A DNA stretch of 64,000 bases from Escherichia coli (GTDB lineage: Bacteria; Pseudomonadota; Gammaproteobacteria; Enterobacterales; Enterobacteriaceae): the NCBI RefSeq assembly GCF_013122565.1, contig NZ_CP053258.1; one strand, written 5' to 3'. Numbering within the stretch: the stretch's first letter is position 1; every line of letters begins with the position of its first letter. The translations under genes and the position numbers were made by a program. Below are positions 36,386-60,003 of this stretch, in pieces. The notes beneath the pieces are model-generated. The model ran no database searches and was not told where the DNA came from. It was given only the letters and a program-made list of their open reading frames with translations.

Positions 36386-36940
36386 ATGACCCTACGCAAG
36401 ATTCTGGTACTCACCTGCCTGCTGTTGCCGATGATGGCTTCCGCACATCAGTTCGAAACCGGTCAGCGAGTGCCGCCGATTGGCATTACCGATCGTGGCG
36501 AGTTGGTGCTTGATAAAGATCAGTTTAGCTACAAAACCTGGAACAGCGCGCAGTTAGTGGGAAAAGTGCGAGTACTGCAACATATTGCTGGTCGCACCTC
36601 TGCAAAAGAGAAAAACGCGACGCTGATTGAAGCGATTAAATCAGCGAAGTTACCGCACGATCGTTACCAGACCACCACCATTGTTAACACCGACGACGCG
36701 ATTCCGGGTTCCGGCATGTTTGTGCGCAGCAGTCTGGAGAGTAATAAAAAGCTTTATCCCTGGTCGCAGTTTATTGTCGATAGCAATGGCATCGCGCGCG
36801 GTGCCTGGCAGCTGGATGAAGAAAGTTCCGCTGTAGTGGTGCTGGATAAGGATGGTCGCGTGCAATGGGCCAAAGACGGGGCGCTCACTCAGGAAGAGGT
36901 GCAGCAAGTGATGGACCTGCTGCAAAAGTTGCTCAAATAA
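36386..36940 (+). CDS. ytfJ: Periplasmic protein YtfJ
   Basis: 184 aa with signal peptide MTLRKILVLTCLLLPMMASA. Confidence 0.85.
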   Translation: MTLRKILVLTCLLLPMMASAHQFETGQRVPPIGITDRGELVLDKDQFSYKTWNSAQLVGKVRVLQHIAGRTSAKEKNATLIEAIKSAKLPHDRYQTTTIVNTDDAIPGSGMFVRSSLESNKKLYPWSQFIVDSNGIARGAWQLDEESSAVVVLDKDGRVQWAKDGALTQEEVQQVMDLLQKLLK

Positions 36941-37002
36941 TGGCAACAACATAGATTCTGCAAAAATAATATTCCCCTGTCGATACCTATGGGATAGGGG
37001 AA

Positions 37003-37701
37003 TTAAGTGTATGAGTTCTTACGCCGAACTAATACTGGTAACGCTAGTTGCTCTTTTTTAAACGCCTCAATGGTAGATTTATATTTCTCGCAAATCTCCT
37101 CTTCGGTAATATCACTATCTACCGCCAGATTCGCACTTACTATCGCATCCACTTGTTCGGCTAATTCCACTTGTTGGCAACCTGCATTAACCAGAAAATT
37201 ATAAATAAGAGAGTAATCTTCATCCTCCAAAACAACAAAGGAACCATTACGAAAACGTTCATCCCCTCCATAGATTGTAAGCACAGAGCCCAAAGATTCT
37301 ATGACTATGGCAAAATTATCATCAATTATTTTTTCGTAAATATACCATCCATCGCATTCTTTAATTCCACCTCCTGGTATTTGGAGTTCAAATTTACCCC
37401 GTTTTAATTTGCTTACTATATCCTCCAATAAGGCATAACCTAAAGACACGTCACCAAACGCCTGGCGAATATAACCTTTAATCCTTTTCGGTATGTCAGA
37501 CTGTTTTTTCTGTAAAATATCCCAGGCATACAATCTTCTGTTTTGTTCTAACGGAAACTCGCGGTTTTTGAAATCCATGAATGAGTTATACTCATTTATT
37601 GTTATGGGAATTTCTTCGTATTCAAACCCACTGCCTCGCAATGTCATTGTATATTCGGCACCGTTATCTTTAAGGCTGAAACTGATAAGAAACTTATCCA
37701 T
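37003..37701 (-). CDS. ytfI: AT-rich hypothetical protein at the ytfI position
   Basis: 232 aa from first ATG (MDKFLISFSLKDNGAEY...); ORF extends to a TTG at 37785; strongly AT-biased codons; symbol assigned by position only. Confidence 0.5.
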   Translation of the reverse strand: MDKFLISFSLKDNGAEYTMTLRGSGFEYEEIPITINEYNSFMDFKNREFPLEQNRRLYAWDILQKKQSDIPKRIKGYIRQAFGDVSLGYALLEDIVSKLKRGKFELQIPGGGIKECDGWYIYEKIIDDNFAIVIESLGSVLTIYGGDERFRNGSFVVLEDEDYSLIYNFLVNAGCQQVELAEQVDAIVSANLAVDSDITEEEICEKYKSTIEAFKKEQLALPVLVRRKNSYT

Positions 37702-38152
37702 GGCGTTAACAGTTTCATTTTTTGATGAAAGTACCTGATAACTATTTTTATCAATCTGAGTTGCGCAACGAAAGAACTCCCTCAAAGTTAAGAGGCTATC
37801 ATAATTCTAAACCCAATCTTTTTCCCTAAATGCATGCTGAATATTATTAAAAAAATTGTTTGAATGTGTTTTTGTATGCGATGATTTTACAAATAACTCC
37901 ACCGCACCAATAAAATTATTGTGTCTGATCCTGGGTAACATATGGCTACCTTATTTTATTTGGTTATTTTATGTCGCCATTAAATATCTCATTATAGAAG
38001 TAAACTATCAAAAAACGCTCATTATTAAAATGTTACTTATTAGCAATTGAATTTTTGCACTTTAAATACAATCTCTTTTTATTTATAACTTTTTAGGTTG
38101 GGAGAAATCAGCATGGCAGAATCAGGAAATACACTGTTTCTGCCATCTGAAT

Positions 38153-38893
38153 TTAGTAAATAGACACTCTGAACCCCGGATTCAGGAACGACTCGCGCGG
38201 AGTGTAATCCAGCGGTTTACCCTGCCAGTCGTGAACGTGCGCTCCGGCAGCTGCAGCCACAGCATGACCGGCGGCGGTGTCCCAAATATTCGTTGGTCCG
38301 AAGCGCGGGTACAGCTGCGCCTGTCCTTCCGCCACCAGGCAGAATTTCAGCGAAGAGCCGATGGACGTGGTCTGATGTTCGCCAAGCTGTTGCAGATACT
38401 CTTTCAGCTCCGCATCTGCATGGGAACGGCTGATAACCACCAGCGGCGGGCGCGCATCGCGGACCTGAATCTGCTTGCGCACACCGCACTCTTCTTTCCA
38501 GGCTTTGCCTTCTGCCGCGCTGTACATTACGTTCATTACCGGCGCATACACCACACCTAAAATCGGTTTGCCGTGGTCGATGAGCGCAATGTTAACGGTG
38601 AATTCGCCATTACGTTTAATAAACTCTTTAGTACCATCCAGCGGGTCTACCAGCCAGTAACGCTGCCAGTGCTGACGGACTTCCCAACCGGGAGGATCTT
38701 CTTCAGAAAGGACCGGAATATCCGGTGTCAGCGTACGTAAACCGTCCATGATAACGGTGTGTGCGGCAATATCCGCTGCCGTTACCGGAGAATTGTCCGC
38801 TTTGCTGACGACGTCCATCGGTTTCGTCCCGTCGTAGACCTGCATAATGGCATCGCCTGCATTCCGTGCAAGCTGGCATACTTGATCTAACAT
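38153..38893 (-). CDS. cysQ: 3'(2'),5'-bisphosphate nucleotidase
   Basis: 246 aa inositol-monophosphatase family ([20 protein letters not shown]...). Confidence 0.95.
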
Positions 38894-39082
38894 TTCTCCA
38901 CCTCGTCTCTGTGAGCGGTGTTAACTTATTGTTTTACTTATACCCTATCGTTAATGAATGCGCCAACTGTGATAGTGTCATCATTTTCAAAGCGTAAAAT
39001 TGTGGCATTCTTCACTGTTCTATAAGTAAGACGTTTATTCTCCCTTTTCTTTCGTATTCCCGATGATAAAAGGATGTCCCTG

Positions 39083-41026
39083 ATGATTAAGTTTAGCGCA
39101 ACGCTCCTGGCCACGCTGATTGCCGCCAGTGTGAATGCAGCGACGGTCGATCTGCGTATCATGGAAACCACTGATCTGCATAGCAACATGATGGATTTCG
39201 ATTATTACAAAGACACCGCCACGGAAAAATTCGGACTGGTACGTACGGCAAGCCTGATTAACGATGCCCGCAATGAAGTGAAAAACAGCGTACTGGTCGA
39301 TAACGGCGATTTGATTCAGGGGAGTCCGCTGGCCGATTACATGTCGGCGAAAGGATTAAAAGCAGGTGATATTCACCCGGTCTATAAGGCATTAAATACG
39401 CTGGACTATACCGTCGGCACGCTTGGCAACCATGAGTTTAACTACGGTCTGGATTACCTGAAAAATGCGCTGGCAGGAGCGAAATTTCCTTATGTAAATG
39501 CCAACGTCATTGACGCCAGAACCAAACAGCCAATGTTTACACCGTATTTAATTAAAGATACCGAAGTGGTCGATAAGGACGGAAAAAAACAGACGCTGAA
39601 GATTGGCTATATTGGCGTCGTGCCGCCGCAAATCATGGGCTGGGATAAAGCTAATTTATCCGGGAAAGTGACGGTAAATGATATTACCGAAACCGTGCGC
39701 AAATACGTGCCTGAAATGCGCGAGAAAGGTGCCGATGTTATTGTCGTTCTGGCGCATTCCGGGCTGTCTGCCGATCCGTATAAAGTGATGGCGGAAAACT
39801 CAGTTTATTACCTCAGTGAAATTCCGGGCGTTAACGCCATTATGTTTGGTCATGCTCACGCCGTTTTCCCAGGTAAAGATTTTGCTGATATCGAAGGGGC
39901 TGATATCGCGAAAGGCACGCTGAATGGTGTTCCGGCGGTAATGCCAGGCATGTGGGGCGATCATCTTGGTGTAGTCGACTTACAACTCAGTAATGACAGC
40001 GGTAAATGGCAGGTGACGCAGGCGAAAGCGGAAGCACGACCGATTTACGACATCGCTAATAAAAAATCCCTCGCGGCGGAAGACAGCAAGCTGGTAGAAA
40101 CACTCAAAGCCGATCACGATGCCACACGCCAGTTCGTCAGCAAGCCAATCGGTAAATCTGCCGACAATATGTATAGCTATCTGGCGCTGGTGCAGGACGA
40201 TCCGACCGTGCAGGTGGTGAACAACGCGCAAAAAGCGTATGTCGAGCATTACATTCAGGGCGATCCGGATCTGGCAAAACTGCCGGTGCTTTCAGCTGCC
40301 GCACCGTTTAAAGTTGGTGGTCGCAAAAATGACCCGGCAAGCTATGTGGAAGTGGAAAAAGGCCAGTTGACCTTCCGTAATGCCGCCGATCTTTATCTCT
40401 ATCCCAATACGCTGATTGTGGTGAAAGCCAACGGTAAAGAGGTGAAAGAGTGGCTGGAGTGCTCCGCCGGACAGTTTAACCAGATTGATCCTAACAGCAC
40501 GAAACCACAGTCACTCATCAACTGGGATAGTTTCCGCACCTATAACTTTGATGTGATTGATGGTGTGAATTATCAGATTGATGTTACCCAGCCTGCCCGT
40601 TATGACGGCGAGTGCCAGATGGTTAATGCCAATGCGGAAAGGATTAAGAACCTGACCTTTAATGGCAAGCCGATTGATCCGAACGCCATGTTCCTCGTTG
40701 CCACCAATAACTATCGCGCTTACGGCGGCAAATTTGCTGGTACGGGCGACAGCCATATCGCTTTTGCTTCACCGGATGAGAACCGCTCGGTGCTGGCAGC
40801 TTGGATTGCTGATGAGTCGAAACGTGCGGGGGAAATTCACCCGGCAGCAGATAACAACTGGCGTTTAGCACCGATTGCCGGCGATAAGAAACTGGATATC
40901 CGTTTCGAAACCTCTCCGTCAGATAAAGCCGCAGCGTTTATTAAAGAGAAAGGGCAATATCCGATGAATAAAGTCGCGACCGATGATATCGGGTTTGCGA
41001 TTTATCAGGTGGATTTGAGTAAGTAA
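39083..41026 (+). CDS. cpdB: 2',3'-cyclic-nucleotide 2'-phosphodiesterase/3'-nucleotidase
   Basis: 647 aa from ATG at 39083 ([33 protein letters not shown]...). Confidence 0.95.
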
Positions 41027-41039
41027 AACACTTCTTTTT

Positions 41040-41235
41040 CGGCCTATAAATCATCAACCGCATCCGGCACTTTTGGCGGATGCGCTGCTGGCGCATCTTA
41101 TCCGCCCTACAAGCCATGAACCGTTGACCATATAAGCGCAGCGCATCCGGCTCTTCCTGGCGGAGGCGATGCTGACGCATCTTATCCGCCCTACAAGCCA
41201 TGAACCATAGACCGGATAAGCGCAGCGCATCCGGC
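41040..41235. repeat. REP/BIME cluster with an ~80-bp direct duplication
   Basis: GCGCATCTTATCCGCCCTACAAGCCATGAACC occurs at about 41090 and 41170, interleaved with inverted GCGCAGCGCATCCGGC units. Confidence 0.8.
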
Positions 41236-41237
41236 AG

Positions 41238-41390
41238 TTATGCCGCACGTTCATCCCGCACCGCTAACACCTCGGGCAAATTCAACTCAATCCAGTCCGC
41301 CAGTGCAGCAACCTTTTCGCTCACCTGCTCGCCCAGCGGCGTGAGGCTGTATTCCACATGCGGCGGCGTTACTGGCGTTGTCCGGCCAAT
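41238..41390 (-). pseudogene. ytfH: 3' remnant of HxlR-family regulator gene ytfH (N-terminal two-thirds absent)
   Basis: Reverse frame gives ...PPHVEYSLTPLGEQVSEKVAALADWIELNLPEVLAVRDERAA*, an HxlR-type C-terminus; in-frame TAA directly upstream and no start codon. Confidence 0.6.
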
Positions 41391-43224: not shown

Positions 43225-43276
43225 TTCGTTCGATCAACGATCCTGACATGTACGGGATCGTTGATTGTTAAGAGGT

Positions 43277-44770
43277 TCAGTCTTTCAATGGACGTAATTC
43301 ATTGTTGTAACTGGTGTAACTGCCTTCAACGGTAAGTAGATTGCCGTTTTCATCAAGATGCGCCGCATTGAGTTGTCGAGTTTCATTACGCCGCTTCGCA
43401 TCACGAACCAGCCCATCGCCTACGTAATAAATATAGTGGTCATCATGAGCAAAGGTATCTGATAATTGACCATTGGCGTATTTAAACCACGTCCATTGGC
43501 CTTTAAGCTCAAATTTCTCAACCGTGTCTTTATCAATAAAATACGTATAGCGATCGTCATGTGCCAAATAATTTAATGTTGTGCCATCGGGGCTTTTATA
43601 CCACTGCCATTGCCCATTGATATCAAAAATAGTCACATCATCCCTTGCAAGGAAATAAACTTTATTCCCTACAACATTAGCACCTTCCTGTAATTCTTGT
43701 TGCGGGTCTGGTAAATGAATGACCGAAAGCGTTTTTTCGACCGCAGAAATATACTTCACCAGATAGAGCGAATCTTTATATTGCGCCACATTCTTCGTCA
43801 GCGGGCGAAAATATTCCGGATCAACATCAGGAATGGTCGCAACCCGGCAGTCATTGGCACGCCAGGAAGCATCACGCGTCATCCAGGTTACTTTATCCCG
43901 CTGTAGGTCAAATGTATTCCGGCAATCTTTACCGAACGAATAACGTTTCTCCCCGTCCTTATCGCGATAAATCAGCAGGGAACCGGCTATCCAGCGCACA
44001 ATATGAAAGGTGTCCGGATCGGCGTCGATGGCATCTCCGTTCACAAAGACCTGCGATTTTGTCCGCCAGATTGTATCCCAGGGTGCGGGATGCCCCCAAC
44101 TTTCACAACTGTTTGGCAAATAAAGAATATTCCGTTGGGCCCAGGGTTTAATATCAAGAATAGAATATCCTTGGGTACTACCCAACCAGCGTCCCTGAAA
44201 GTAAAGATTGCGACGATCTTTCAGCACATCCGCGGAATCAACTGAATTCATCCTCCCCCCCACCTGTTGCAGCGAATCCATATCGACCTGCTTTTCGCCG
44301 TGATTATCATCCGTGCGTTCGCCGTCAAAATAGAGGCTGTCTTTATCGGCAGCAAAACGCCCCCATGCGCGGAATGTTGCGGCATCGACTTTCGGTGTTC
44401 CCGGCGGGTTCTGAACTATTTTCCCTGCCCATAAAATATGGCGACCATCGGTCAACCAGTCGAAACGCCAACTGCTGTTAGTTCTGATATTAGTGCCAGC
44501 ATCTACCTGAACAAAATCATTATTGATATCATCAGGAGAATCATATTTATCATCAGTGCCGTTGGGTACGCGGCGAAGTTGCTTAAACTTCACCTGCGAT
44601 AAATGAATATCCGGAAAATAGAGTCCGTAACCATCACTATCTTCAACGATATATTTTGTGCCTTGCCCCCACGGCTGGTAGTAAAACGCAGCATAAGGCA
44701 CACCAGAGCAAGCTATTGAAGCGGTTGAAAATAAAGCCAGTGCGAGACAAACAGGTTTAATTGGCAACAT
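43277..44770 (-). CDS. Secreted repeat protein, DKNYY-like, paralog 1
   Basis: 497 aa; signal peptide; recurring D-x-x-x-L/V-Y-F/Y units (DKDSLYF, DRRNLYF, DDRYTYF, DDHYIYYV); shares a core block with the adjacent gene. Confidence 0.6.
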   Translation of the reverse strand: MLPIKPVCLALALFSTASIACSGVPYAAFYYQPWGQGTKYIVEDSDGYGLYFPDIHLSQVKFKQLRRVPNGTDDKYDSPDDINNDFVQVDAGTNIRTNSSWRFDWLTDGRHILWAGKIVQNPPGTPKVDAATFRAWGRFAADKDSLYFDGERTDDNHGEKQVDMDSLQQVGGRMNSVDSADVLKDRRNLYFQGRWLGSTQGYSILDIKPWAQRNILYLPNSCESWGHPAPWDTIWRTKSQVFVNGDAIDADPDTFHIVRWIAGSLLIYRDKDGEKRYSFGKDCRNTFDLQRDKVTWMTRDASWRANDCRVATIPDVDPEYFRPLTKNVAQYKDSLYLVKYISAVEKTLSVIHLPDPQQELQEGANVVGNKVYFLARDDVTIFDINGQWQWYKSPDGTTLNYLAHDDRYTYFIDKDTVEKFELKGQWTWFKYANGQLSDTFAHDDHYIYYVGDGLVRDAKRRNETRQLNAAHLDENGNLLTVEGSYTSYNNELRPLKD

Positions 44771-44802
44771 AGCGTCATCCTGAAGCTGTTAGCGTGAAGA
44801 GG

Positions 44803-45960
44803 TTATTTAAATAAGGGTTTAAGACCGCTCGGGGGTTGCTTCACCGATGACCAACCTCCCTTACCTAAGTTATAACGCAGCCATTTACCTTGTTGGACGT
44901 GCTCTTTCCCAACTCCAGTCGCTTGTTGAGTGTAAAGCTGCCCGTCTGTTGATATAAACGTGTTAGTTAATCCCCAACTACCACCTGCTTCAAGTGAGTC
45001 GGTGAGATCCTCTGGCTTGAGATTAATCAACTCCCCTTCGCCCAGGGCGTTGGTTGTGACTTTATAAATTTGGTTCTTATATAAACCGGTATTGCGAACA
45101 AACAGATAAAAATATTCCGGATCAACTCGCGGCAGCGTTTCATAAATACACTCACTGCCCGCTGGAGTGGCTTCATGTTTGAGCCAGGACACGTTATTCA
45201 GACCAATATTAAAAGGTGCACAGCGATAGCTGGTATCCTCCAGCTCATAGTCACGCTCACCGCTTTTATCGCGATAAACTAAGCGTTCGCCAGGCATCCA
45301 GCGGATTATCTGAAAGGTTTTACGATCGGCGGGCAGCGGCTTGCCATTAACAATCACCTGCGAATTTGTCAGCACAACAAATTGCAGGGCGGAATCATGC
45401 CGCACGATTTGAAACCCGTCAGCGCTTCCCAACCAGTGCCCCTTATGCCAAAGACTATTTTTATCACGCAGTAAATTCCAGATGTCCGTCTCTTCAAGCG
45501 TTGACATATCCACCTGCTTATCACCGCTATTATCATCGGTACGCTGACCGTCAAAATAGATACTGCGTTTATCAGCAGCGAAAGCGCCGAATGCCTGAAA
45601 ACTGGCAGCGTCGACTTTAGGTTTACCGGGGGGGTTTTTCAGGACTTTGCCAGACCAAAGGACAGAGCGTCCATCAGTGAGCCAGGCATGCTGGCAATCC
45701 CCCTCGTCATCACAATCGAACTTATCGGGATTAAAATCTGACAGTAACCGGCAATCTTGTTTATTGGTTAAATTGGCAATGCGCCAGAGGCGGGAAAAGT
45801 TAACGTCCAGCAGTTCGGAGAGGATCTCATCTTTTTGCCCCTTCTCTTCGGCAACGTAAACCGTGCCTTTCTCCTGCTGGCGGTAATAAAAATCCGCGCC
45901 CCAGGAAGGTGAAATGGAGAGCGGTAATGCGGTGATTAATAACCAACTTCGCGTAACCAT
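44803..45960 (-). CDS. Secreted repeat protein, DKNYY-like, paralog 2
   Basis: 385 aa from ATG at 45960 (MVTRSWLLITALPLSISPSWG-ADFYY...); ORF-track start at 45984 is TTG; core block shared with paralog 1. Confidence 0.6.
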   Translation of the reverse strand: MVTRSWLLITALPLSISPSWGADFYYRQQEKGTVYVAEEKGQKDEILSELLDVNFSRLWRIANLTNKQDCRLLSDFNPDKFDCDDEGDCQHAWLTDGRSVLWSGKVLKNPPGKPKVDAASFQAFGAFAADKRSIYFDGQRTDDNSGDKQVDMSTLEETDIWNLLRDKNSLWHKGHWLGSADGFQIVRHDSALQFVVLTNSQVIVNGKPLPADRKTFQIIRWMPGERLVYRDKSGERDYELEDTSYRCAPFNIGLNNVSWLKHEATPAGSECIYETLPRVDPEYFYLFVRNTGLYKNQIYKVTTNALGEGELINLKPEDLTDSLEAGGSWGLTNTFISTDGQLYTQQATGVGKEHVQQGKWLRYNLGKGGWSSVKQPPSGLKPLFK

Positions 45961-46085
45961 AGTGATCTCTGAAATGAGTGGCAAAGATCCACAGTAAGTC
46001 CGCGCCTGGGGGGATGTCGATGACGGTAAGTTTTTTTAGGAATGTATAAAGACAAAGGAGATTGCTGACAAAGTGAGCTTTGTTC

Positions 46086-46200
<115 letters not shown>

Positions 46201-46226
46201 AGACACCCGCAGGTGCCTTAGCGGCA

Positions 46227-47630
46227 TTACTTCGCCATGCGTTTTTTACCAATAAACAACCAGCCCAGCCCCAACGCGATAAACCACAGCGGGGTGACCA
46301 GCAGCGCCTGGCGGGTATCATCTTCCAGCGTCAGCAGCACGATCACAAACACAAAGAACGCCATGCATACCCAGCACATCAGCTTGCCGAGCGGCATCTT
46401 GTAGATCGACTTCTCATGCAGATGAGGACGCTGTTTGCGATACACCAGGTACGAGCAAAGGATAATCGTCCAGACGAACATAAACAGAATCGCGGAAACG
46501 GTTGTAATCATCGTGAACGCGCCAATCACGCTAGGATTCACATACAACATCACCACGCCGCCGAGCAGACAGATACACGAGAAGGTCAATCCTTTCGCGG
46601 GTACTGCGCGCTTAGAAAGTTTAGCGAACGCTTTCGGCGCAACACCTTCCTGCGCCAGACCAAACAGCATACGGCTGGTAGAGAAGACACCGCTGTTAGC
46701 GGAAGACGCCGCAGAGGTCAGCACCACAAAGTTGATCACGCTGGCAGCCGCAGGCAAACCTACCAACACAAACAGTTCAACAAACGGGCTTTTCTCCGGG
46801 ACTACCGAACTCCACGGCGTCACGGACATAATCACAATCAGCGCGAAGACGTAGAACATAATGATACGGATCGGAATGGAGTTAATCGCGCGTGGCAGTG
46901 ATTTCTCTGGATCTTTGGTTTCCGCAGCTGTTGTACCTACCAGCTCAATCCCCACGAAAGCGAAAACCGCTATCTGGAATCCGGCAAAGAAGCCACTTAA
47001 ACCTTTCGGGAACCAGCCGCCGTCATTCCACAAATGCGCGAATGACGCTTCCACACCAGTCGGTGACTGAAAGTGCATCGCCACCATGACCAGGCCGACG
47101 ACAATCAGCGACACAATGGCGACGATTTTGATCATCGCAAACCAGAACTCCATCTCACCGAACATTTTCACGGTGGCGAGGTTAAGCGTCAGCAGCAGCA
47201 CTATCACCGCCAGCGAGGCGACCCAGTCGGAGAGATCGGGGAACCAGAACTGAGCATAAGCCGTGATCGCCACCACGTCTGCCATACCGGTTACAACCCA
47301 GCAGAACCAGTAAGTCCAGCCGGTGAAATATCCTGCCCACGGCCCGAGTAAATCGGAAGCGAAGTCACTAAAAGATTTGTATTCCAGATTCGAAAGCAGC
47401 AATTCCCCCATTGCCCGCATCACGAAAAAGAGCATAAAACCAATGATCATATAAACGAAAATGATCGACGGCCCGGCAAGGCTAATCGTTTTGCCAGACC
47501 CCATAAACAACCCCGTACCAATGGCACCGCCAATGGCAATAAGCTGAATATGTCGGTTTGTGAGATTGCGCCGTAGCGACTGTTCAGCCGGAGCCTGATC
47601 ATCGGCAACGACTTTTACCTGATCTACCAT
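46227..47630 (-). CDS. cycA: D-serine/D-alanine/glycine:H+ symporter (APC family)
   Basis: 467 aa, MVDQVKVVADDQAPAEQSLRRNLTNRHIQLIAIGGAIGTGLFMGSG... Confidence 0.95.
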   Translation of the reverse strand: MVDQVKVVADDQAPAEQSLRRNLTNRHIQLIAIGGAIGTGLFMGSGKTISLAGPSIIFVYMIIGFMLFFVMRAMGELLLSNLEYKSFSDFASDLLGPWAGYFTGWTYWFCWVVTGMADVVAITAYAQFWFPDLSDWVASLAVIVLLLTLNLATVKMFGEMEFWFAMIKIVAIVSLIVVGLVMVAMHFQSPTGVEASFAHLWNDGGWFPKGLSGFFAGFQIAVFAFVGIELVGTTAAETKDPEKSLPRAINSIPIRIIMFYVFALIVIMSVTPWSSVVPEKSPFVELFVLVGLPAAASVINFVVLTSAASSANSGVFSTSRMLFGLAQEGVAPKAFAKLSKRAVPAKGLTFSCICLLGGVVMLYVNPSVIGAFTMITTVSAILFMFVWTIILCSYLVYRKQRPHLHEKSIYKMPLGKLMCWVCMAFFVFVIVLLTLEDDTRQALLVTPLWFIALGLGWLFIGKKRMAK

Positions 47631-49428: not shown

Positions 49429-50064
49429 TCACATGCATGGGGTCACAAGGAGCCAGCTTAAAAGCGTCTCCTTGATAACCTTATGTCTGTTCTCCAAAGC
49501 CTCAGGAGATATCATACTGATGTGATAAACCAACCCTAAAGTATGTTGGTTAAGAATATAATATCCAGCAAGAGCGGCAAGGCTAATGTTTACCTGTAAT
49601 GGATCTATATCTTGCTTAAAGATATTTTGTTTTTTTCCTTCATCAAGCAACCTTTCCATAATCTCTAAATGCGAGTGGTTAATTTCGGGCAAACGAGTTG
49701 ATTTCTTGTAGTGCTCCCCTCGACTTTGGTTTTCGGAATGAATTATCTTTAAAAACCAAGGATTCTTCACATAATAATCCCACGTAAAATCAATAAATTT
49801 TTCAATGGATTGCAATGGGTTTAGTCCAGTAAAGTCCAGATCTCTTTCTTTTTGCCGGATGTCATTACACGTATATTCAAGGACTTCAATAAACAAATTC
49901 TCTTTATTACCAAAATGATGATAAACAGTCTGCTTACTACAACCGGCTGCTTTAACAATATTATCGACCCTGGCACCTTCATAGCCATACTCTGCAAATT
50001 CATTGATAGCGCACAGTAATAATTTTTCTTTCAAAATTTGCACTTTACTAGTATCAAAATACAT
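49429..50064 (-). CDS. TetR-family transcriptional regulator, full length (ytfA position)
   Basis: 211 aa from ATG at 50064 ([58 protein letters not shown]...); divergent from the downstream operon. Confidence 0.75.
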
Positions 50065-50430
50065 CTTCACCCCTCACACTAATCTTGCCAACCTATTATA
50101 TACTCTTTTACCGCGTGACCACGCACATTTTTCATACAAAAATCATCATTATCTTACAGAGCATTAAACCTACTTACATTGTTTCGTTACTGTGAAACAG
50201 ACAGAAAATTTTTCCTTGATGCATATTTGTTAAAAATGGAATATGGCTTTAATTAATTATATTCATATAATGAATATTTAACTATAAATAATTAATTCCA
50301 TTTATTTTCAAAGAGTTATAATTTTAAATATGATCTCCCTCACGAATCAACCAACTAGATGGTTGGTTCAAATAAAATCTATAGGCATCTTTGTCTCCAT
50401 GATGAATCCTGTATTTAAAGAGGTCCAAAA

Positions 50431-51222
50431 ATGAAATCAAAAAAACCCGTTGCTATTATTACCGGTGCTGCCCGTGGTATCGGTAAAGGTTGTGCTATTG
50501 AACTAGCTCGCGCTGGATTTAATCTTCTAATAAATGATCGACCAGATAAAGACAGCATCGAAAAACTTAAAGCAACTCAAAAACTATGTATCGCTGAAGG
50601 TGTTGAAGTCATAACGTTTCCAGCCAACATTGGCGATTTAACGTTACATGAAAAGATGCTCGACGCGGCGCAAAATCAGTGGGAGCGTTTGGACTGCCTG
50701 CTCAATAACGCCGGAATTTCGGTGAAAAAGCGTGGTGATATTCTCGACCTGGAGCCAGACAGTTTCGACGATAACATTGCCATCAATACCCGCGCACCTT
50801 TCTTCCTCGCCCAGGCTTTCAGCAAGCGCCTGTTGGCGCAACCCAAACCAGAAGCTGAACTACCGCATCGCTCAATTATTTTTGTCAGCTCAATTAACGC
50901 CATCATGCTGGCGATGAATCGAGGTGAGTACACCATTGCCAAAACAGCTGTATCTGCCGCTGCCCGCCTGTTTGCCGCACGTCTTTGTGAAGAGCAAATT
51001 GGCGTTTATGAAATCCGCCCAGGTTTAATCAAAACCGATATGACTATTCCAGCAACAGCTTATTACGACGAACTGATCGCTAAGGGGTTAGTGCCATGGG
51101 GTCGTTGGGGTTTTCCACAGGACATCGCCTCCACTGTCCGTGCAATGGCGGAAGGCAAACTGATTTACACCTGTGGTCAGGCGGTCGCCATCGACGGCGG
51201 CTTAAGTATGCCACGCTTCTGA
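50431..51222 (+). CDS. Short-chain dehydrogenase/reductase (SDR)
   Basis: 263 aa; TGAARGIG Rossmann motif and Y-x3-K catalytic pair. Confidence 0.8.
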   Translation: MKSKKPVAIITGAARGIGKGCAIELARAGFNLLINDRPDKDSIEKLKATQKLCIAEGVEVITFPANIGDLTLHEKMLDAAQNQWERLDCLLNNAGISVKKRGDILDLEPDSFDDNIAINTRAPFFLAQAFSKRLLAQPKPEAELPHRSIIFVSSINAIMLAMNRGEYTIAKTAVSAAARLFAARLCEEQIGVYEIRPGLIKTDMTIPATAYYDELIAKGLVPWGRWGFPQDIASTVRAMAEGKLIYTCGQAVAIDGGLSMPRF

Positions 51223-51231
51223 GGCTGAACC

Positions 51232-52074
51232 ATGAGAGATCTGTTACATCGCCCGGATTTATTCAGCATCAATACCGCGACGCTGGGCTATAAAATGCCT
51301 CTGCCCGCCCTTATTGATGCTTGTGCCGCACGCGGCATCGGTGCGATTGCCCCCTGGCGCAGAGAGTTGCAGAGCGAAGATCTTCAGCAAATCGTCCGCC
51401 AGCTTGCCGCCAATAACATGAGCGTTTCTGGTTTATGCCGTAGCACCTACTACACCGCGCCGACGCTGGCAGAGCGCAAGCTGGCGATTGATGATAACCG
51501 CCGGGCGCTGGACGACGCAGCGATGCTGAACGCCGCCTGTTATATGCAGGTGGTTGGCGGTCTGCCAACGGGCACTAAAGATCTGTATGAAGCGCGGGAG
51601 CAAGTGAAAGAAGGGGTTCGCCAGTTGCTGTCACATTCGAAAGATGTCGGCGTGCCGATTGCACTGGAGCCACTGCACCCGATGACTGCTGCCGATCGCT
51701 CTTGCCTCTGCTCGCTACGTCAGGCGCTGGACTGGTGTGATGAACTCGATCCCGATGGTGAGTTTGGCCTCGGCGTGGCGGTCGATGTCTACCACGTCTG
51801 GTGGGATCCGGATCTCACCAGTCAGATCCTGCGCGCTGGAAAACGGATCCTCGCGTTTCATGTTTCCGACTGGCTGGTGCCGACGACCGATCTGGTCAAT
51901 GATCGGGGAATGCCGGGAGATGGCGTCATCAATATTCCGTCAATTCGTCGGCTGGTTGAAAACGCCGGATTTAATGGTTCTATCGAATTAGAAATATTTT
52001 CTTCATTCTGGTGGGAAAAGAATATCAACCAAATACTGGATAAAAGTATTAACGGACTTTCTTATTATTGTTAA
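51232..52074 (+). CDS. Sugar-phosphate isomerase/epimerase (xylose-isomerase-like TIM barrel)
   Basis: 280 aa; family assigned from overall sequence character; 9 nt after the SDR stop. Confidence 0.7.
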   Translation: MRDLLHRPDLFSINTATLGYKMPLPALIDACAARGIGAIAPWRRELQSEDLQQIVRQLAANNMSVSGLCRSTYYTAPTLAERKLAIDDNRRALDDAAMLNAACYMQVVGGLPTGTKDLYEAREQVKEGVRQLLSHSKDVGVPIALEPLHPMTAADRSCLCSLRQALDWCDELDPDGEFGLGVAVDVYHVWWDPDLTSQILRAGKRILAFHVSDWLVPTTDLVNDRGMPGDGVINIPSIRRLVENAGFNGSIELEIFSSFWWEKNINQILDKSINGLSYYC

Positions 52075-52223
52075 ACATCACACTATATTTTTCTCTCGAA
52101 ATTAGTTGATTGTTTAAATTTGCATGTTTTAGAAAGTTATGAGTGAAGTAATAAATCAATAAATTAAATATCTTACAGAGCATTGCGAGTGTTAGGTATT
52201 TATAATCAAATAGGGATTGGCAT

Positions 52224-53765
52224 ATGAGCAAGATTAATACTGCAGAAATACTGGTCGCAGGTATTAAAGATGGCGCAACAATCGCCATTAGCGGTAATGG
52301 CGGTGGAATGGTTGAAGCCGATCATCTACTACAAGCTCTGGAAACACGGTTTCTGGAAACCGGGCATCCATGTAACCTTACGCTTATACACTCATTAGGT
52401 GTAGGAGACCGTGAACACAAAGGCAGTAACCGTTTTGCTCATAAAGGAATGTTAAAGCGTGTTATTGCAGGACATTTCACATGGTCACCAAGAATGCAGG
52501 CTCTGGTTAAGAATAATGAGGTCGAGGCTTATTGCTTTCCTAGCGGAGTTATTCAGACATTATTACGTGAAATAGGCGCTGGACGTCCAGGACTGTTCAC
52601 CCATGTCGGGGTAGGAACTTTTATTGATCCGCGTAATGGAGGAGGGAAATCTAATTCACGAACGACAGAGGATCTGGTAGAGCTAATTGAAATTGATGGA
52701 GAAACAAAGCTACGCTATCGCCCATTTAAAGTTGATTACGCAATTGTGCGCGGTACTTATGCGGATTCACGCGGTAATATTAGCCTGGAAGAAGAAGCCG
52801 TCGATCTGGATTGCAATTCTATAGCTCTAGCTGCCCATAATAGCGGTGGTAAAGTCTTTGTGCAGGTACGTGACATTCTTGAAACAGGTGCGATTGAACC
52901 CAGACGAGTAAAAATACCCGGAATCTTAGTCGATGGCGTCGTGGAATATAGAGATCAACAACAAACATATCTTGGTGGTTACGATCTTACTATCAGCGGC
53001 CAGCATCGTCGTCTTTGTTCTCAAAACTCTATTGAACTGGTTTCAAACCCAATACGTCGATTAATTGCACGCCGTGCAGCACGCGAGTTAGTTGCTGGCG
53101 CATCCACAAACTTTGGCTTTGGCATGCCAGGAGGGATCCCAGGTATTGCTCTGCGTGAAGGAGTCCCTTTTGATACCCTTTGGCTCAGCGTGGAACAAGG
53201 TGTGCATAATGGCATGATGCTGGATGATGCTCTGTTTGGCTGTGCTCGCAATGCTGATGCGATAATTCCTTCTCTTGAGCAGTTTGATTTTTATAGTGGT
53301 GGTGGTGCCGATATAACTTTTCTCGGTATGGGGGAAATGGATCAGTATGGAAACGTGAATGTTTCCCATCTCAACAATAACCTTATCGGACCAGGCGGTT
53401 TTATCGAAATTGCACAGAATGCCCATAAAGTGGTGTTCTGCGGCACGTTTGATGCCAAGGGTAGCAAAATAAACGTCACAAATGCGGGCCTGGAAATCAT
53501 TCAATCCGGCCAGGTAGCAAAACTTGTTTCACAAGTAGAAGAGATAACTTTCAGCGGAGAATATGCGCAACAACGTAAACAGGATGTGTTGTACATTACC
53601 GAGCGCGCTGTATTCCAGTTAACGCCACAGGGTGTGGAACTAATTGAGGTTGCCCCTGGCGTGGACATTGACCACGACATTCTGCCGTATATGGCCTTCC
53701 GTCCAATTATCAAGCACCCACGCCTGATGGAAAGTAGTCTGTTTACGCCGATGGAGGATGCATGA
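52224..53765 (+). CDS. Family I CoA-transferase (fused alpha/beta, YdiF/Pct-like)
   Basis: 513 aa; glycine-rich motifs (ISGNGGGM, GPGGFIEIAQNA); stop overlaps next gene start. Confidence 0.7.
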   Translation: MSKINTAEILVAGIKDGATIAISGNGGGMVEADHLLQALETRFLETGHPCNLTLIHSLGVGDREHKGSNRFAHKGMLKRVIAGHFTWSPRMQALVKNNEVEAYCFPSGVIQTLLREIGAGRPGLFTHVGVGTFIDPRNGGGKSNSRTTEDLVELIEIDGETKLRYRPFKVDYAIVRGTYADSRGNISLEEEAVDLDCNSIALAAHNSGGKVFVQVRDILETGAIEPRRVKIPGILVDGVVEYRDQQQTYLGGYDLTISGQHRRLCSQNSIELVSNPIRRLIARRAARELVAGASTNFGFGMPGGIPGIALREGVPFDTLWLSVEQGVHNGMMLDDALFGCARNADAIIPSLEQFDFYSGGGADITFLGMGEMDQYGNVNVSHLNNNLIGPGGFIEIAQNAHKVVFCGTFDAKGSKINVTNAGLEIIQSGQVAKLVSQVEEITFSGEYAQQRKQDVLYITERAVFQLTPQGVELIEVAPGVDIDHDILPYMAFRPIIKHPRLMESSLFTPMEDA

Positions 53766-55834
53766 GTCAGCTTGATGACACCATCCTTGATGCGCTGACA
53801 CACGTCACTTTCCCAAAGGGGTTTGTGTCAGCAGAGCCAACACCAATTGTCACCGTTGAGGATGTTGATTACCCGATCTGGCACGTTGATGCGCTGGTCG
53901 TTGGTAGCGGCGCAGCAGGATTACGTGCGGCAGTTGAACTTAAACGCCGCCAGCAAAATGTGCTGATCGCTACCGCCGGGTTATATATGGGGACGTCGGC
54001 ATGTTCTGGTTCCGATAAACAGACACTGTTTACCGCCGCTACCGCGGGCAACGGCGACAACTTCACCAAACTGGCAGAGGCACTGGCGAGCGGTGGGGCG
54101 ATGGATCACGACACCGCTTATGTCGAAGCGGTAGGTTCTCTGCACACTCTAGGCGGGTTGCAATATCTTGGTCTGGAATTACCGGAAGATCGCTATGGCG
54201 CGATTCTTCGTTATCAAACCGACCATGACGAAGCTGGGCGTGCAACCTCGTGTGGGCCGCGTACCTCAAGGTTAATGGTGAAAGTGCTGTTGGAAGAAGT
54301 ACAGCGCCTCGCCATTCCAGTGTTGACCAGTGCAACAGTGATTAAACTGCTGCATCAGCGTGACGAAAACGGCGAAGACCGCGTGGCAGGGGCAATCCTC
54401 GCGACCGGTCATCGCGCCCATAACCCATGGGGGCTGGCAATTGTGACTGCGCCCAATGTGGTACTGGCAACGGGCGGACCGGGCGAGCTTTATCGCGACA
54501 GTGTTTATCCACATAAATGCTTCGGCTCGCTGGGGCTGGCGCTGGAGGAAGGTCTGACGCTAACCAATCTGACCGAAAGCCAGTTTGGTATAGGCACACC
54601 GCGCAGCACGTTTCCGTGGAATTTGTCCGGCACCTATGTGCAGGTGATCCCGTATATCTATTCCGTGGATGCTGAGGGTAACGAGTATAACTTCCTCGCG
54701 GATTACTATCGCACCACCCAAGAGCTGGCTTCAAACATCTTCCGTAAAGGCTATCAGTGGCCGTTCCACGCCACGCGGGTAATGGATTTTGGCTCCAGCT
54801 TGTTAGATATGGCGGTGGCGCAAGAACAGCAACATGGTCGTCTGGTGTTTATGGATTTCAATCGTAATCCTGAAGCGGTGCCTGGTGATCTACCCTTCTC
54901 ATTAGATCGACTGGACGACGACGTTCGCGCGTATCTGGAAAATAACGACGCTCTGGCACCATCGCCCATCGAACGGCTGCAACGAATGAATCCGCTGTCT
55001 ATCTCGCTGTATAAGATGCACGGTTACGATCTCACCACGCAGCCATTGCAGTTTGCCATGAATAATCAGCACATGAATGGCGGCATTGAAGTGGATATCT
55101 GGGGACAAACATCCCTGCCCGGTTGTTTTGCAGTGGGAGAAGTAGCCGGTACTCACGGCGTTACCCGACCTGGCGGCGCGGCGCTGAATGCCGGACAGGT
55201 TTTTGCCGTGCGTCTGGCGCGCTTTATTGGTTGCACACAAAAGCGGTCTGTTGAGGAGGATGTCGCGCAGCTGGTAGCCTCATCTCTGCATATAGTCAGA
55301 GAAGTTATCGCTCAGGCACTGGCAAACGAGAACGGAATGGCGCTGGTAACGGTGAAAGAAAAAATCCAGGCGCGAATGTCTGATTACGCTGGATTTATTT
55401 GTCATGCCGATAAAGTTCGTCACGCCACCCGTGACGCCCTGCTGTTAAGTGAGTTTGTACAACAACACGGTTTGACCATCAAACATGTTGGCGAAATTGC
55501 CGAACTATTTATGTGGCGGCATATGGCACTGACTTCTGCCGCCATATTGACACAATTGACGCATTATATTGACGCAGGTGGCGGCAGTCGTGGGGCGCGG
55601 ATAATTATTGATCACTATGGGGAAGGTCTACCACAAACTCGACAGGGTGCAAAAGAAAAATGGCGTTTTAGATTGGAGTCTGAAAATGAAAGAGAATCAC
55701 GAGCAACGATTCAGCTTAACAATGGAGAATTTATAATAAATAAAAACAAGATACGTCAAATAATCAATTTCAAAAATAATTATTTTGAAAAAAATTGGCC
55801 GGAGTTTCTCCTTGGAGAAATCTATATAAAATAA
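53762..55834 (+). CDS. FAD-dependent oxidoreductase (fumarate reductase/succinate dehydrogenase flavoprotein-like)
   Basis: 690 aa; N-terminal dinucleotide-binding motif VVGSGAAGLRAA; ATGA overlap with CoA-transferase gene; AT-rich 3' end. Confidence 0.65.
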   Translation: MSQLDDTILDALTHVTFPKGFVSAEPTPIVTVEDVDYPIWHVDALVVGSGAAGLRAAVELKRRQQNVLIATAGLYMGTSACSGSDKQTLFTAATAGNGDNFTKLAEALASGGAMDHDTAYVEAVGSLHTLGGLQYLGLELPEDRYGAILRYQTDHDEAGRATSCGPRTSRLMVKVLLEEVQRLAIPVLTSATVIKLLHQRDENGEDRVAGAILATGHRAHNPWGLAIVTAPNVVLATGGPGELYRDSVYPHKCFGSLGLALEEGLTLTNLTESQFGIGTPRSTFPWNLSGTYVQVIPYIYSVDAEGNEYNFLADYYRTTQELASNIFRKGYQWPFHATRVMDFGSSLLDMAVAQEQQHGRLVFMDFNRNPEAVPGDLPFSLDRLDDDVRAYLENNDALAPSPIERLQRMNPLSISLYKMHGYDLTTQPLQFAMNNQHMNGGIEVDIWGQTSLPGCFAVGEVAGTHGVTRPGGAALNAGQVFAVRLARFIGCTQKRSVEEDVAQLVASSLHIVREVIAQALANENGMALVTVKEKIQARMSDYAGFICHADKVRHATRDALLLSEFVQQHGLTIKHVGEIAELFMWRHMALTSAAILTQLTHYIDAGGGSRGARIIIDHYGEGLPQTRQGAKEKWRFRLESENERESRATIQLNNGEFIINKNKIRQIINFKNNYFEKNWPEFLLGEIYIK

Positions 55835-55937
55835 ACGCCTTTTAAATCGGTAGCTATTAAATAAATATTTTATGATTTGCAAAATTCACGCTTTTACATT
55901 GTGAGTATTTTCTATTGATAATATCAAAGGTTTAATC

Positions 55938-57218
55938 ATGAAAAAAATCAAGCACTATAGGTGGCATATTATCGTCTTAATATGTTTCATCACTGTAATT
56001 AATTATTTGGACAGAACAGCATTAGGCGTGGCCGCGCCCACAATAATGCAAACGATGGGGATAACTAAAGAGCAATATTCATGGGTTGTCAGTGCATTCC
56101 AGTTAGCATATACAATTGGACAACCTGTAATGGGATTCTTTATTGACCTTATCGGTCTGAAATTTAGCTTTTTCATTTGCATTATAATCTGGGGACTTGC
56201 CACTATGGGGCACGCATTAGCGGGATCCTGGCAAGGTTTGGCCTTTATGCGTGGCCTGATGGGAGTAAGTGAAGCCTCCGTCTTTCCCGCAGGGATAAAG
56301 ACTGTATCGACGTGGTTTCCTGCTAAAGAACGCGGTATTGCTGCGGGATTCTTCAACACGGGTACATCTCTTGGTGCCATGCTTGCTCCACCGCTTATTG
56401 CCTGGTGCATAATGTTCCATAGTTGGCAATTCGCATTTCTGGTTTCTGGCTGTCTGGCATTATTTGCGGCAGTGATGTGGTTTATCTTTTATAAAGACCC
56501 CAAAGATGCCAAAGGACTTTCTGAAGAGGAAAGACACTATATAGAGTCTGGGCAAGAAAAACATCTTGATTCTAATAAAAGTAAAAAAGCAACCATTCTT
56601 CATGTTATTAAAAAACGCAATTTCTGGGGTATTGGCATTACCCGTTTCCTGGCAGAACCAGCTTGGGGAACAATCAACTTTTGGGTACCTATATTTTTCG
56701 TTGAAACATTGCATTTCAGCTTAAAAGATATAGCAATGTTTATCTGGCTCCCGTTTTTATTAGGTGACTTGGGTTGTTTATCTAGTGGTTTTATCGCTAA
56801 GTTTTTTCACGATCGCGGGGTTAGCCTTCTTAATGCACGAAGAATTACATTTACATTCGCTGCAACAACGATGATGTCGATTGGTTTGGTTAGCATCGTC
56901 ACTAATCCGTACATTGCTGTATTACTAATTAGTATCGGTGCATTCTCACATCAATGCCTATCTACTGTTGTTGCCACTATGGGGGCCGATCTTTTTGAAA
57001 AAGAAGAAGTCGCAACAGTAGTTGGATTATCGGGAGGGTGTGGATATACAGGGCAACTGATATTTAATATATTCATTGGTGTATTCGTTGCTGCAATTGG
57101 CTTCTCGACATTCTTTGTGATACTTGCCTTCCTGGATATTATTGGTGCCATTATTTTATGGTCTGTAATTAGACCACCGAAACTTGTTGAACAAACAAAT
57201 TTAGTAACACAATCGTAG
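55938..57218 (+). CDS. MFS transporter
   Basis: 426 aa, about 12 TM segments, AT-rich codon usage. Confidence 0.8.
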   Translation: MKKIKHYRWHIIVLICFITVINYLDRTALGVAAPTIMQTMGITKEQYSWVVSAFQLAYTIGQPVMGFFIDLIGLKFSFFICIIIWGLATMGHALAGSWQGLAFMRGLMGVSEASVFPAGIKTVSTWFPAKERGIAAGFFNTGTSLGAMLAPPLIAWCIMFHSWQFAFLVSGCLALFAAVMWFIFYKDPKDAKGLSEEERHYIESGQEKHLDSNKSKKATILHVIKKRNFWGIGITRFLAEPAWGTINFWVPIFFVETLHFSLKDIAMFIWLPFLLGDLGCLSSGFIAKFFHDRGVSLLNARRITFTFAATTMMSIGLVSIVTNPYIAVLLISIGAFSHQCLSTVVATMGADLFEKEEVATVVGLSGGCGYTGQLIFNIFIGVFVAAIGFSTFFVILAFLDIIGAIILWSVIRPPKLVEQTNLVTQS

Positions 57219-57269
57219 TTTTTATTTTTACCTATAGAATTTTAATCGAAAAAAAATAAAGGAAAGATT

Positions 57270-57749
57270 ATGTCTCAAACAGAAATTATTCTTCCTTCAG
57301 GAAGAGAACTTACTCCAGGTGAATATGGTTATGCCAATCTGGAACCTGGCGATCACTACCAGACTCCCGGTCTTAACGTAACAGAGTCACAGATTGTTGC
57401 TTTTGCGGGGATAAGCGGTGATTTTTTCGATGTTCATATGGATGATGAATTTGCAAGGGAAAAAGGATTTCCAGGACGCATTGCCCACGGTCTGTTAGGT
57501 TTAGCATTGACGGACGGCCTGAAGAATCGTTCTATTGTACGTTTACGTGCAGTTGCTACATTAAACTGGAACTGGTCATTCTGTGCACCATTATTGCCTG
57601 GAGATCATATTCACGCCGTTATTACTGTTGTTAAAAAACGCCCCACCAAACGTGAAGACCGAGGCATTGTGACTTTTGCTTTACAATTGTTTAATCAACA
57701 TGGAAAGATAATACAGCGAGGCGAAACTCTGCTGATGATGATGCAATAA
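57270..57749 (+). CDS. MaoC-like (R)-specific enoyl-CoA hydratase/dehydratase
   Basis: 159 aa hot-dog-fold-type sequence; GGAAAG RBS. Confidence 0.7.
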   Translation: MSQTEIILPSGRELTPGEYGYANLEPGDHYQTPGLNVTESQIVAFAGISGDFFDVHMDDEFAREKGFPGRIAHGLLGLALTDGLKNRSIVRLRAVATLNWNWSFCAPLLPGDHIHAVITVVKKRPTKREDRGIVTFALQLFNQHGKIIQRGETLLMMMQ

Positions 57750-57868
57750 TCTGAGTTTGAAATACGTACCAACGAGTATGCTGGTACGTATTTCTTCGCA
57801 AACGCACTGTTTATGCTCTCTCCCTCATAATGACTGTTTCATCTAACTAATATTTCTAAATAACTGTC

Positions 57869-59137: not shown

Positions 59138-59150
59138 AATTAATTTCCTT

Positions 59151-59642
59151 TTATCGGTTTTTTATCGGTTTTTTTATCGGTTGTAATAGTGCAGCAAGAG
59201 AGGTTGACGTTTCCCCTGGAATAGTTGGCGTTGAGTCTTTTGCCAGTGCTGTTAAATCCGTGGTGAGATGACCTTCTTTCTCGCGTTTCGTCTGAAATGA
59301 GGCTGTCTGAATCCCTTCTTCATTCTTAACTGATGAACGAGAAAGCCCTCTTTTTTTAATCAAACGGGAATCCTGGAGCTGATGCCCTAAGGCGTCTTCA
59401 GCTGCAAGCTTATTTAAATCCGTTTCCAGGCCCAAAACCTGCATCACAGACAAATATGCCCCTATCGTGACCCCTGCACTTCCTGCCTCCAGAGAACGCA
59501 ATGTGATTGGCGACATCCCTGCACGCTCAGCAACTTGCTTTGCGGTTAGCTTACGTCGTAAACGAGCAAGTTTCAGACGCTCACCAAATTCACTAAGCAT
59601 CTGATTCGTATAAGGGAGTAACGGTGCTGTTTTTTTACCCAT
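59151..59642 (-). CDS. XRE-family HTH protein with long low-complexity C-terminal tail (HipB-like antitoxin candidate)
   Basis: 163 aa; HTH in [39 protein letters not shown]; about 80-aa S/T/K-rich tail ending [10 protein letters not shown]; start may instead be the internal ATG at 59600. Confidence 0.7.
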
Positions 59643-59664
59643 AGTGATAATATTTTATCTTTTT

Positions 59665-59681
59665 ATGGCTATGATAGCCAT
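59665..59681. promoter_or_regulatory. 17-bp perfect palindrome ATGGCTATgATAGCCAT upstream of the HTH gene; candidate operator
   Basis: Read directly; flanked by ATAATATT direct repeats; 25-40 bp upstream of the ATG at 59642. Confidence 0.45.
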
Positions 59682-60003
59682 AATATTAGCATTTATTAGA
59701 TTGAACGCACCTGCAAAGCGTTCAGAATTATGGAAGAGATAATATCTTATCTTTTTATATATAAAAACAATAAAATAACAGCACATTAATATATAACTTA
59801 TTGTTTTTATTATCTTACAAGGGAGACACTCGCTGTATTGATGCTTTTGTCGTGTTTTATGTGTAAAAAACATGACACGAACTACCAGCGGCGAGACTGG
59901 GGGCTGGGGGCCTGGTATGGGTACTGCGAACTTTTTATAAAAGGAATAGCAAGAGATTTATGGAGGGAACGTCTATTTCTGCGGTTTTTATCACTTAAAA
60001 GCA

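Follow-up and report, generated by a model that had tools for sequence, protein, structure and literature searches.

Acquired, AT-rich DNA segments bound by H-NS are among the closest described counterparts of the locus considered here. Higashi et al. 2016 (PMC4720273) single out the K-12 copy of the ytfI islet to illustrate such a segment, and describe ytfI as a strain-specific insert that H-NS occupies in ChAP-seq. They report that H-NS binding at ytfI spreads to cpdB, cysQ, ytfJ and ytfK in K-12, and that this binding is absent in SE11 and SE15, strains without ytfI. Other mentions of the gene are scattered. A disputed sigma-32 ChIP peak lies inside ytfI (PMC3870955), ytfI was a match in an ASKA overexpression screen for resistance to HOCl (PMC8228696), and the revised genotype of strain JM83 lists a ytfI mutation (PMC11148124). 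A literature search on b4215, the K-12 locus tag of ytfI, returned nothing relevant. ytfI is a known accessory gene of E. coli.

The window analysed here is a stretch of 64,000 nucleotides from the Escherichia coli contig NZ_CP053258.1, and we consider it very probable that the AT-rich region between its ytfJ and cysQ genes is the ytfI islet and that the ytfI copy within it is a pseudogene. The islet resembles the segments treated in PMC4720273 in its GC content, about 15 points under that of the genome, and in its presence or absence from strain to strain. It is also like H-NS-bound acquired segments in carrying ORFan cargo and in a sequence that diverges faster than its flanks. It differs in that neither a mobility gene nor a donor was found, and its acquisition predates the split from a lineage that is ∼10% diverged. 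By analogy, the paper supports placing the islet among acquired H-NS-bound DNA, with H-NS occupancy known for the K-12 copy only, in line with the possibly H-NS-silenced DNA that the initial annotation had suggested.

The ytfI reading frame and its amber codon

The order ytfK-ytfJ-ytfI-cysQ-cpdB is identical in the window and in K-12. On the left, ytfJ (36386..36940, plus strand) encodes 184 aa, with final codons unlike those of the ancestral 185-aa form. On the right, cysQ (38153..38893, minus strand) lies upstream of ytfI and is co-directional with it, and cpdB (39074-41026, plus strand) follows beyond cysQ. ytfI is therefore placed as in K-12, with cysQ upstream on the same strand and ytfJ convergent. 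The interval between the ytfJ and cysQ stop codons is 1212 bp long and aligns to K-12 without gaps at 95.7% identity. In the intergenic region between cysQ and cpdB, the minus strand at 38960-39082 holds a full-length match to the Rfam sRNA ES239 with a score of 157 bits (gathering score 62).

ytfI occupies 37003..37941 on the minus strand, where 312 codons and a stop are collinear with K-12 ytfI (899 of 939 nt identical, 95.7%, 0 gaps). The K-12 gene is 939 bp long, and its 312 codons agree with the length of about 312 aa that the initial annotation had given for the protein. The two copies agree in position and orientation, in their start and stop codons and in the intergenic regions. The frame is broken at a single point, codon 45 (37807..37809, minus strand), where a coding-strand C-to-A change turns Ser45 from TCG into a premature amber TAG; the variant base is 37808, read as t on the plus strand. 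TCG stands at this codon in K-12 and in every other allele examined. Over the other 311 codons, the two copies differ by ∼19 non-synonymous and 20 synonymous changes (dN/dS 0.23), and the C-terminus reads ...NSYT in the window vs ...NSET in K-12.

The amber codon divides the gene into two open stretches. Upstream of it, codons 1-44 (37810..37941, minus strand), with the sequence MLPRIRHNNFIGAVELFVKSSHTKTHSNNFFNNIQHAFREKDWV, remain in frame and identical to the N-terminus of YtfI. The native start at 37941 is kept, with AAGG upstream, and opens a 44-codon ORF that spans 135 bp (37807-37941) when the TAG is included. Downstream, the frame is open to the native stop at 37003-37005. It can be read from an internal Met81 as 232 codons (37003..37701), or from a TTG at codon 53 as the 260-aa version in the ORF list (37003-37785), both on the minus strand. 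The first ATG, at 37701, and the 232-aa product are thus as the initial annotation had them. On the alignment, the ORF is best read as the 3′ three-quarters of a pseudogene, opened from the internal Met81.

An alignment with K-12 had been proposed to decide whether an upstream frameshift or stop truncates the gene. It is a stop that does so, with neither a frameshift nor an indel, and the window copy is not identical in length and sequence to intact K-12 ytfI. The suspicion that the gene had decayed is borne out by the TCG-to-TAG change. Reading of the sequence by eye found no Shine-Dalgarno-like sequence ahead of either internal start, and the 80 N-terminal residues that the 232-aa form lacks are among the best conserved of YtfI. 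Because the 232-260-codon ORF has no ribosome-binding site and lacks these conserved residues, ytfI is probably non-functional in this strain. Intact ytfI alleles have frames of 303-319 codons, and that of the window is broken at codon 45; for want of an intact frame, the locus is filed as a ytfI pseudogene and not as a functional member. It is disrupted relative to intact alleles of 303, 312 and 319 aa that are under purifying selection, and no observation speaks against the pseudogene reading.

Composition, boundaries and origin of the islet

The region stands out in base composition. The remark that the ORF is more AT-rich than its neighbours holds in a windowed calculation, with GC contents of 37.0% for the 232/260-aa ORF, 52.1% for ytfJ and 55.3% for cysQ. 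Positions 37003-38150 (1148 bp) average 34.6% GC, ∼3.4 sd (sd 4.6%) under the mean for windows of that length, and form the second-lowest GC trough within the 64 kb. The islet as a whole (36941..38152) has 34.8% GC vs 50.2% for the window, a composition low enough for acquired DNA. The initial annotation had also described 37786-38150 as AT-rich, low-complexity and non-coding for ∼370 bp. Its AT-richness is confirmed (29.3% GC); low complexity in the sense of repeats is not, since Tandem Repeats Finder reported no tandem repeats in the stretch. Of the supposed non-coding stretch, 211 bp (37942-38152) are intergenic and 135 bp turn out to be the 5′ remnant of ytfI.

Several other differences from K-12 lie in the window. 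At ∼41150-41390, ∼1.19 kb fewer than in K-12 separate cpdB from ytfF; ytfH lacks its 5′ two-thirds, qorB is almost entirely missing, and ∼90 bp beside the junction align twice. Between ytfE and cycA, a 3.0-kb segment that is not in K-12 (43226-46239) carries minus-strand ORFs of 497 aa and 393 aa, for neither of which Pfam gave a match. Only 267 complete genomes, IAI39 and CE10 among them, cover at least 80% of a 9.9-kb query in which this segment is included. Finally, the ytfB-rplI interval of K-12, which contains yjfZ, has nothing corresponding to 10.2 kb of the window at 49809-59997. The left edge of this 10.2-kb segment is the lowest GC trough of the window (33.9% at ∼49.5 kb).

The cysQ-ytfI intergenic region (37942..38152, minus strand, 211 bp) is 97.2% identical to that of K-12. 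It contains the AAGG ribosome-binding site, a conserved 20-nt block at 38004-38023 and a promoter-like site on the minus strand, with a -35 element TTGATA (38011-38006) and a TG-extended -10 element GATATT (37988-37983). In a promoter scan, the number of promoter-like sites in the intergenic region did not exceed that in shuffled sequences. Across diverged alleles, the intergenic region is 97.2, 88.6 and 84.3% identical vs 95.7, 84.9 and 77.3% for the coding sequence.

A hairpin lies near each end of the islet. The stronger of the two (38113..38146, minus strand) has 13-nt arms, begins 7 nt downstream of the cysQ stop codon and folds at -21.4 kcal/mol (z -4.95). Its 34 nt occur once in the window and vary in none of the ytfI-bearing loci examined, the ∼10% diverged lineage included. 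It is likely a terminator or RNA-end structure for cysQ that is supplied by the islet. The other hairpin (36971..37003), an inverted repeat with the label I9, sits between the convergent 3′ ends of ytfJ and ytfI and is weak on folding energy alone (z -1.8 on the plus strand and -0.65 on the minus strand). It is nonetheless called the likely ytfI terminator because a U-rich run, UAUUAUUUUUG, follows it on the ytfI strand. Rfam returned no match inside the islet.

The islet comprises the ∼1.2 kb that separate the ytfJ and cysQ stop codons, with bounds good to about ±10 bp. A query running from ytfJ to cysQ matched 5,420 complete genomes and was covered fully in 1,610 (∼30%). In the remaining ∼3,800 (∼70%), ytfJ and cysQ matched inside a span of 1,288 bp and the islet was absent. 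In Nissle 1917, for example, ytfJ encodes 185 aa and its 3′ end shares 11 bp with that of cysQ, with nothing in between. Salmonella enterica, E. marmotae and E. fergusonii have the same empty site with its 11-bp overlap, and a YtfJ of 185 aa is the form in nearly all other Enterobacteriaceae. The empty site in these outgroups and the distribution of the 185-aa YtfJ together indicate that the empty state is ancestral and the ytfI segment an insertion. The suggestion of horizontally acquired DNA in the initial annotation is thereby upheld: the islet is missing from ∼70% of E. coli and from outgroups, and the occupied state is derived.

The ancestral overlap, TTAATAAATAG, recurs imperfectly as a 9-11-bp repeat at both ends of the islet. 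This terminal repeat is compatible with target duplication upon insertion, and would also let the segment be lost precisely. The islet shows neither an integrase nor IS ends or terminal inverted repeats that could point to a vehicle, and a phage search gave no match to it. Four matches labelled as plasmids were rejected as signs of a plasmid origin, as the replicons are 0.65-4.9 Mb long and hence chromosome-sized. Neither relatives outside Escherichia and Shigella nor a mobility gene were found that would identify a donor.

The insertion is old. ytfI is syntenic in a lineage whose flanks are ∼90% identical to those of the window (L021), and another divergent group (L006, with flanks at 96.8%) has it at the same place. 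Its occurrence at one place in diverged lineages argues that the acquisition was not recent. A ∼1.2-kb, AT-rich, single-gene segment entered exactly at the 11-bp ytfJ/cysQ 3′ overlap early in the E. coli lineage, bringing in a promoter region, the ORFan ytfI and, towards either end, a hairpin. In this genome, a single C-to-A change turned Ser45 into an amber codon, and translation from the native start is predicted to stop after 44 residues. Since no gene follows ytfI before the convergent ytfJ, loss of ytfI would have no polar consequence.

Constraint on YtfI and disruption of the gene

YtfI has no detectable relative outside Escherichia and Shigella in the homology and structure searches, so that the description of ytfI as an orphan gene in the initial annotation was apt. 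The 17 clusters returned by a search of 5.8 billion proteins held nothing but E. coli and Shigella sequences. A profile search of 1.84 billion representatives yielded YtfI fragments and, apart from these, a single repeat protein. The latter, a TPR-like protein of 1441 aa, was rejected as a relative, as it matched over 13 weak stretches and reflects an artefact of repeat summing. Pfam, NCBIfam and a PDB sequence search gave no match to YtfI. A 41-residue match to Cas6b through PADLOC (E 8e-4) and a match to phrog_3250, of unknown function, through PHROGs (E 1.7e-3) were both set aside as too short and weak. The AlphaFold model has a mean pLDDT of 46.5 over the full length and 41.1 over residues 61-303, and Foldseek found nothing in the PDB under E 0.01 for the full-length model. 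The top Foldseek matches were Pur-alpha repeats at a TM score of 0.13; they are a lead suggested by two predicted beta4-alpha modules, and not evidence.

A scan of one genome per species over 100,044 species yielded two ytfI loci. One is a 1.5-kb contig (JAIJJM010000759.1) in a metagenome-assembled genome of Collinsella sp., with a YtfI of 97% identity, and it almost certainly entered the bin as contamination from E. coli. The other is in the genome SCPM-O-B-8794, which is labelled E. coli. Its cysQ is 90.0% identical to that of the window, 86.6% to that of E. marmotae and 86.5% to that of E. albertii, identities that argue for a separate Escherichia lineage. YtfI protein identity falls to 70% in this lineage and to 78% in the L006 group.

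Despite this divergence, which is ∼2-5 times that of the flanks, alleles with 77-85% nucleotide identity keep ORFs of 303-312 codons in AT-rich DNA. The ratio dN/dS is 0.12-0.41 in all informative allele pairs; the exception is a pair of near-identical divergent copies, L021 and L009, with 10 differences and a ratio of 1.0. Such ratios, together with the maintained frames, argue that ytfI is a real gene. It is, or was, on these comparisons, a protein-coding gene under moderate constraint. In-frame variants comprise a 303-aa form that ends at a TGA at codon 304 and a 319-aa form produced by a 21-bp duplication after CDS nt 431. This duplication is present in most complete genomes of the window-like haplogroup (for example D9 and EC2), where the product is annotated as hypothetical.

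Disruption of ytfI extends well beyond the window. Alleles close to that of the window carry other lesions, namely TAA at S20 (two loci), TAA at E76 (one locus) and a deletion of C177 (one locus). VE-T9, the closest complete genome at 99.3%, has lost one T from a T7 run; its cpdB is annotated as incomplete. Among the window-like relatives, there is exactly one lesion per genome. The T7 homopolymer (CDS nt 87-93, codons 29-31; 37849..37855, minus strand) is intact in the window and a frameshift hotspot elsewhere, with T6 in VE-T9 and four further loci and T8 in one. One T6 haplotype was found exactly in 214 complete E. coli genomes. When 13 complete genomes other than K-12 were taken at even steps down the similarity ranking, five were annotated as frameshifted, four with T6 and one with T8 and a second indel. 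The variation in the T7 run could mark a slippage hotspot or a clade, or could partly be assembly error. In ETEC1738, an IS1 takes the place of ytfI and of the 3′ part of ytfJ. On these sequences, ytfI appears to be a dispensable gene that is lost repeatedly. The diverse set of lesions was retrieved through the truncated product itself, an ascertainment bias, and homopolymer indels in long-read assemblies may partly be errors.

The variable T run invites comparison with phase-variable contingency genes, in which a 5′ coding homopolymer switches the frame; in ytfI the run varies between T6, T7 and T8 with this effect. The ytfI tract is, however, shorter than those of established phase-variable loci, and reversible switching is without evidence. 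Unlike the product of a contingency switch, the window allele keeps its T7 in frame and is disrupted by a nonsense substitution elsewhere.

The amber allele itself is rare. A 60-nt probe centred on the TAG was exact in none of 5,426 complete E. coli genomes; the best match was 59/60, and 30 complete genomes matched at 59/60 or less. Draft E. coli assemblies list both the 232- and the 260-aa product as hypothetical proteins, and seven contigs encoding the 232-aa product were compared with the window. Five have a lesion other than TAG at codon 45, and one ends 139 nt upstream of the 232-aa ORF, with its lesion beyond the contig end. The seventh, from the Logan assembly of SRR11451224, is identical to the window for 448 nt upstream, the TAG included, and also has a second base, at CDS nt 660, that is private to it and the window. 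The TAG allele is thus rare and lineage-specific.

Rarity of this kind would also be expected if the TAG were a sequencing or assembly error in a gene that is in fact intact, a reading favoured by its absence from all 5,426 complete genomes. An error is nevertheless an unlikely source, and the reading as a whole can hardly be right: the change is a substitution and not a homopolymer indel, it recurs within the identical 448 nt of a separately assembled SRA run, and that run shares the private base at CDS nt 660. The run could, however, come from the same strain as the window. If the stop is real, the 232- or 260-aa ORF might still be translated from an internal start and work as an N-terminally shortened YtfI. 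It is open to the native stop and annotated as a protein in several draft genomes, yet we regard this as very improbable, given that neither the TTG at codon 53 nor the ATG at codon 81 is preceded by a Shine-Dalgarno-like sequence and that the missing 80 residues are so well conserved. Moreover, relatives that retain this C-terminal ORF have their frames interrupted at different codons (20, 29, 45, 59 and 76), which marks the shortened form as a consequence of separate lesions rather than a product that is conserved.

What drives the lesions is a separate matter from what they do. A silenced and dispensable gene would decay by drift, and this expectation matches the absence or deletion of ytfI in ∼70% of E. 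coli and the varied lesions elsewhere; we infer that its loss is tolerated because ytfI is silenced and dispensable. Inactivation could instead be adaptive, with YtfI costly or harmful on escape from silencing, knock-outs and deletions selected, and the T7 run serving as an easy off-switch. At least seven different lesions across alleles speak for selection, as do the T6/T8 alleles on at least three local haplotypes (one of them that of the 214 complete genomes) and the lack of ytfI in ∼70% of E. coli. In the window-like haplogroup, moreover, five of the eight segregating CDS variants are disrupting, when nonsense changes make up 5.4% of possible substitutions. This enrichment is, however, built in, because the haplogroup was sampled through the truncated product, and homopolymer indels in long reads can be sequencing errors. 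Because the ancestral site is empty, most strains without ytfI need never have lost it; intact alleles are under purifying selection; and T7 is short for a true contingency locus. An adaptive origin of the lesions is unlikely, if less so than the two alternatives above, and decay of a silenced, dispensable gene by drift is tentatively preferred.

Alternative cargo at the ytfJ/cysQ junction

The ytfJ/cysQ junction holds a different gene in E. albertii-type genomes. In two of these (L005:1497-3000 and L038:3056-4559), an unrelated gene for a 385-aa pentapeptide-repeat protein occupies the site. This islet is like the ytfI islet in its insertion point, in its single AT-rich gene and in a hairpin near each end, and ytfJ is shortened to 184 aa in these genomes too. 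The two islets further share 19 of 20 nt in the block AATGAGCGnTTTTTGATAGT (38004-38023 in the window), which lies ∼65-90 nt upstream of the start codon and matched with a BLAST E of 9e-4 in a small search. They differ in that the E. albertii protein is unrelated to YtfI and its gene has the opposite orientation, and comparison of the islet DNAs gave no other significant similarity outside the 20-nt block.

Taken at their most ambitious, these observations would make the 11-bp ytfJ/cysQ overlap a recurrent landing site for AT-rich single-gene cassettes of an unrecognised mobile or exchangeable kind, with ytfI repeatedly knocked out as costly. The occupants would be ytfI in E. coli and a cryptic Escherichia lineage, and the pentapeptide-repeat gene in E. 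albertii. The points that suggest it are the shared promoter-proximal block of 20 nt, the hairpins near each end, and the imperfect target duplication that flanks both cargoes. We consider such a cassette system decidedly improbable. Even so, the alternative cargo in E. albertii and the shared 20-nt block are the only element of the locus possibly worth further work.

For the window, the reading of a single decayed ytfI changes the annotation, as one ytfI pseudogene replaces a 232-aa ‘hypothetical protein’ and an adjoining stretch of non-coding DNA. The finding is real but ordinary, and is of little weight alone. As a case in the biology of E. coli, ytfI is a small example of what may be the life cycle of an acquired ORFan, from precise insertion through H-NS binding and purifying selection to independent lesions.
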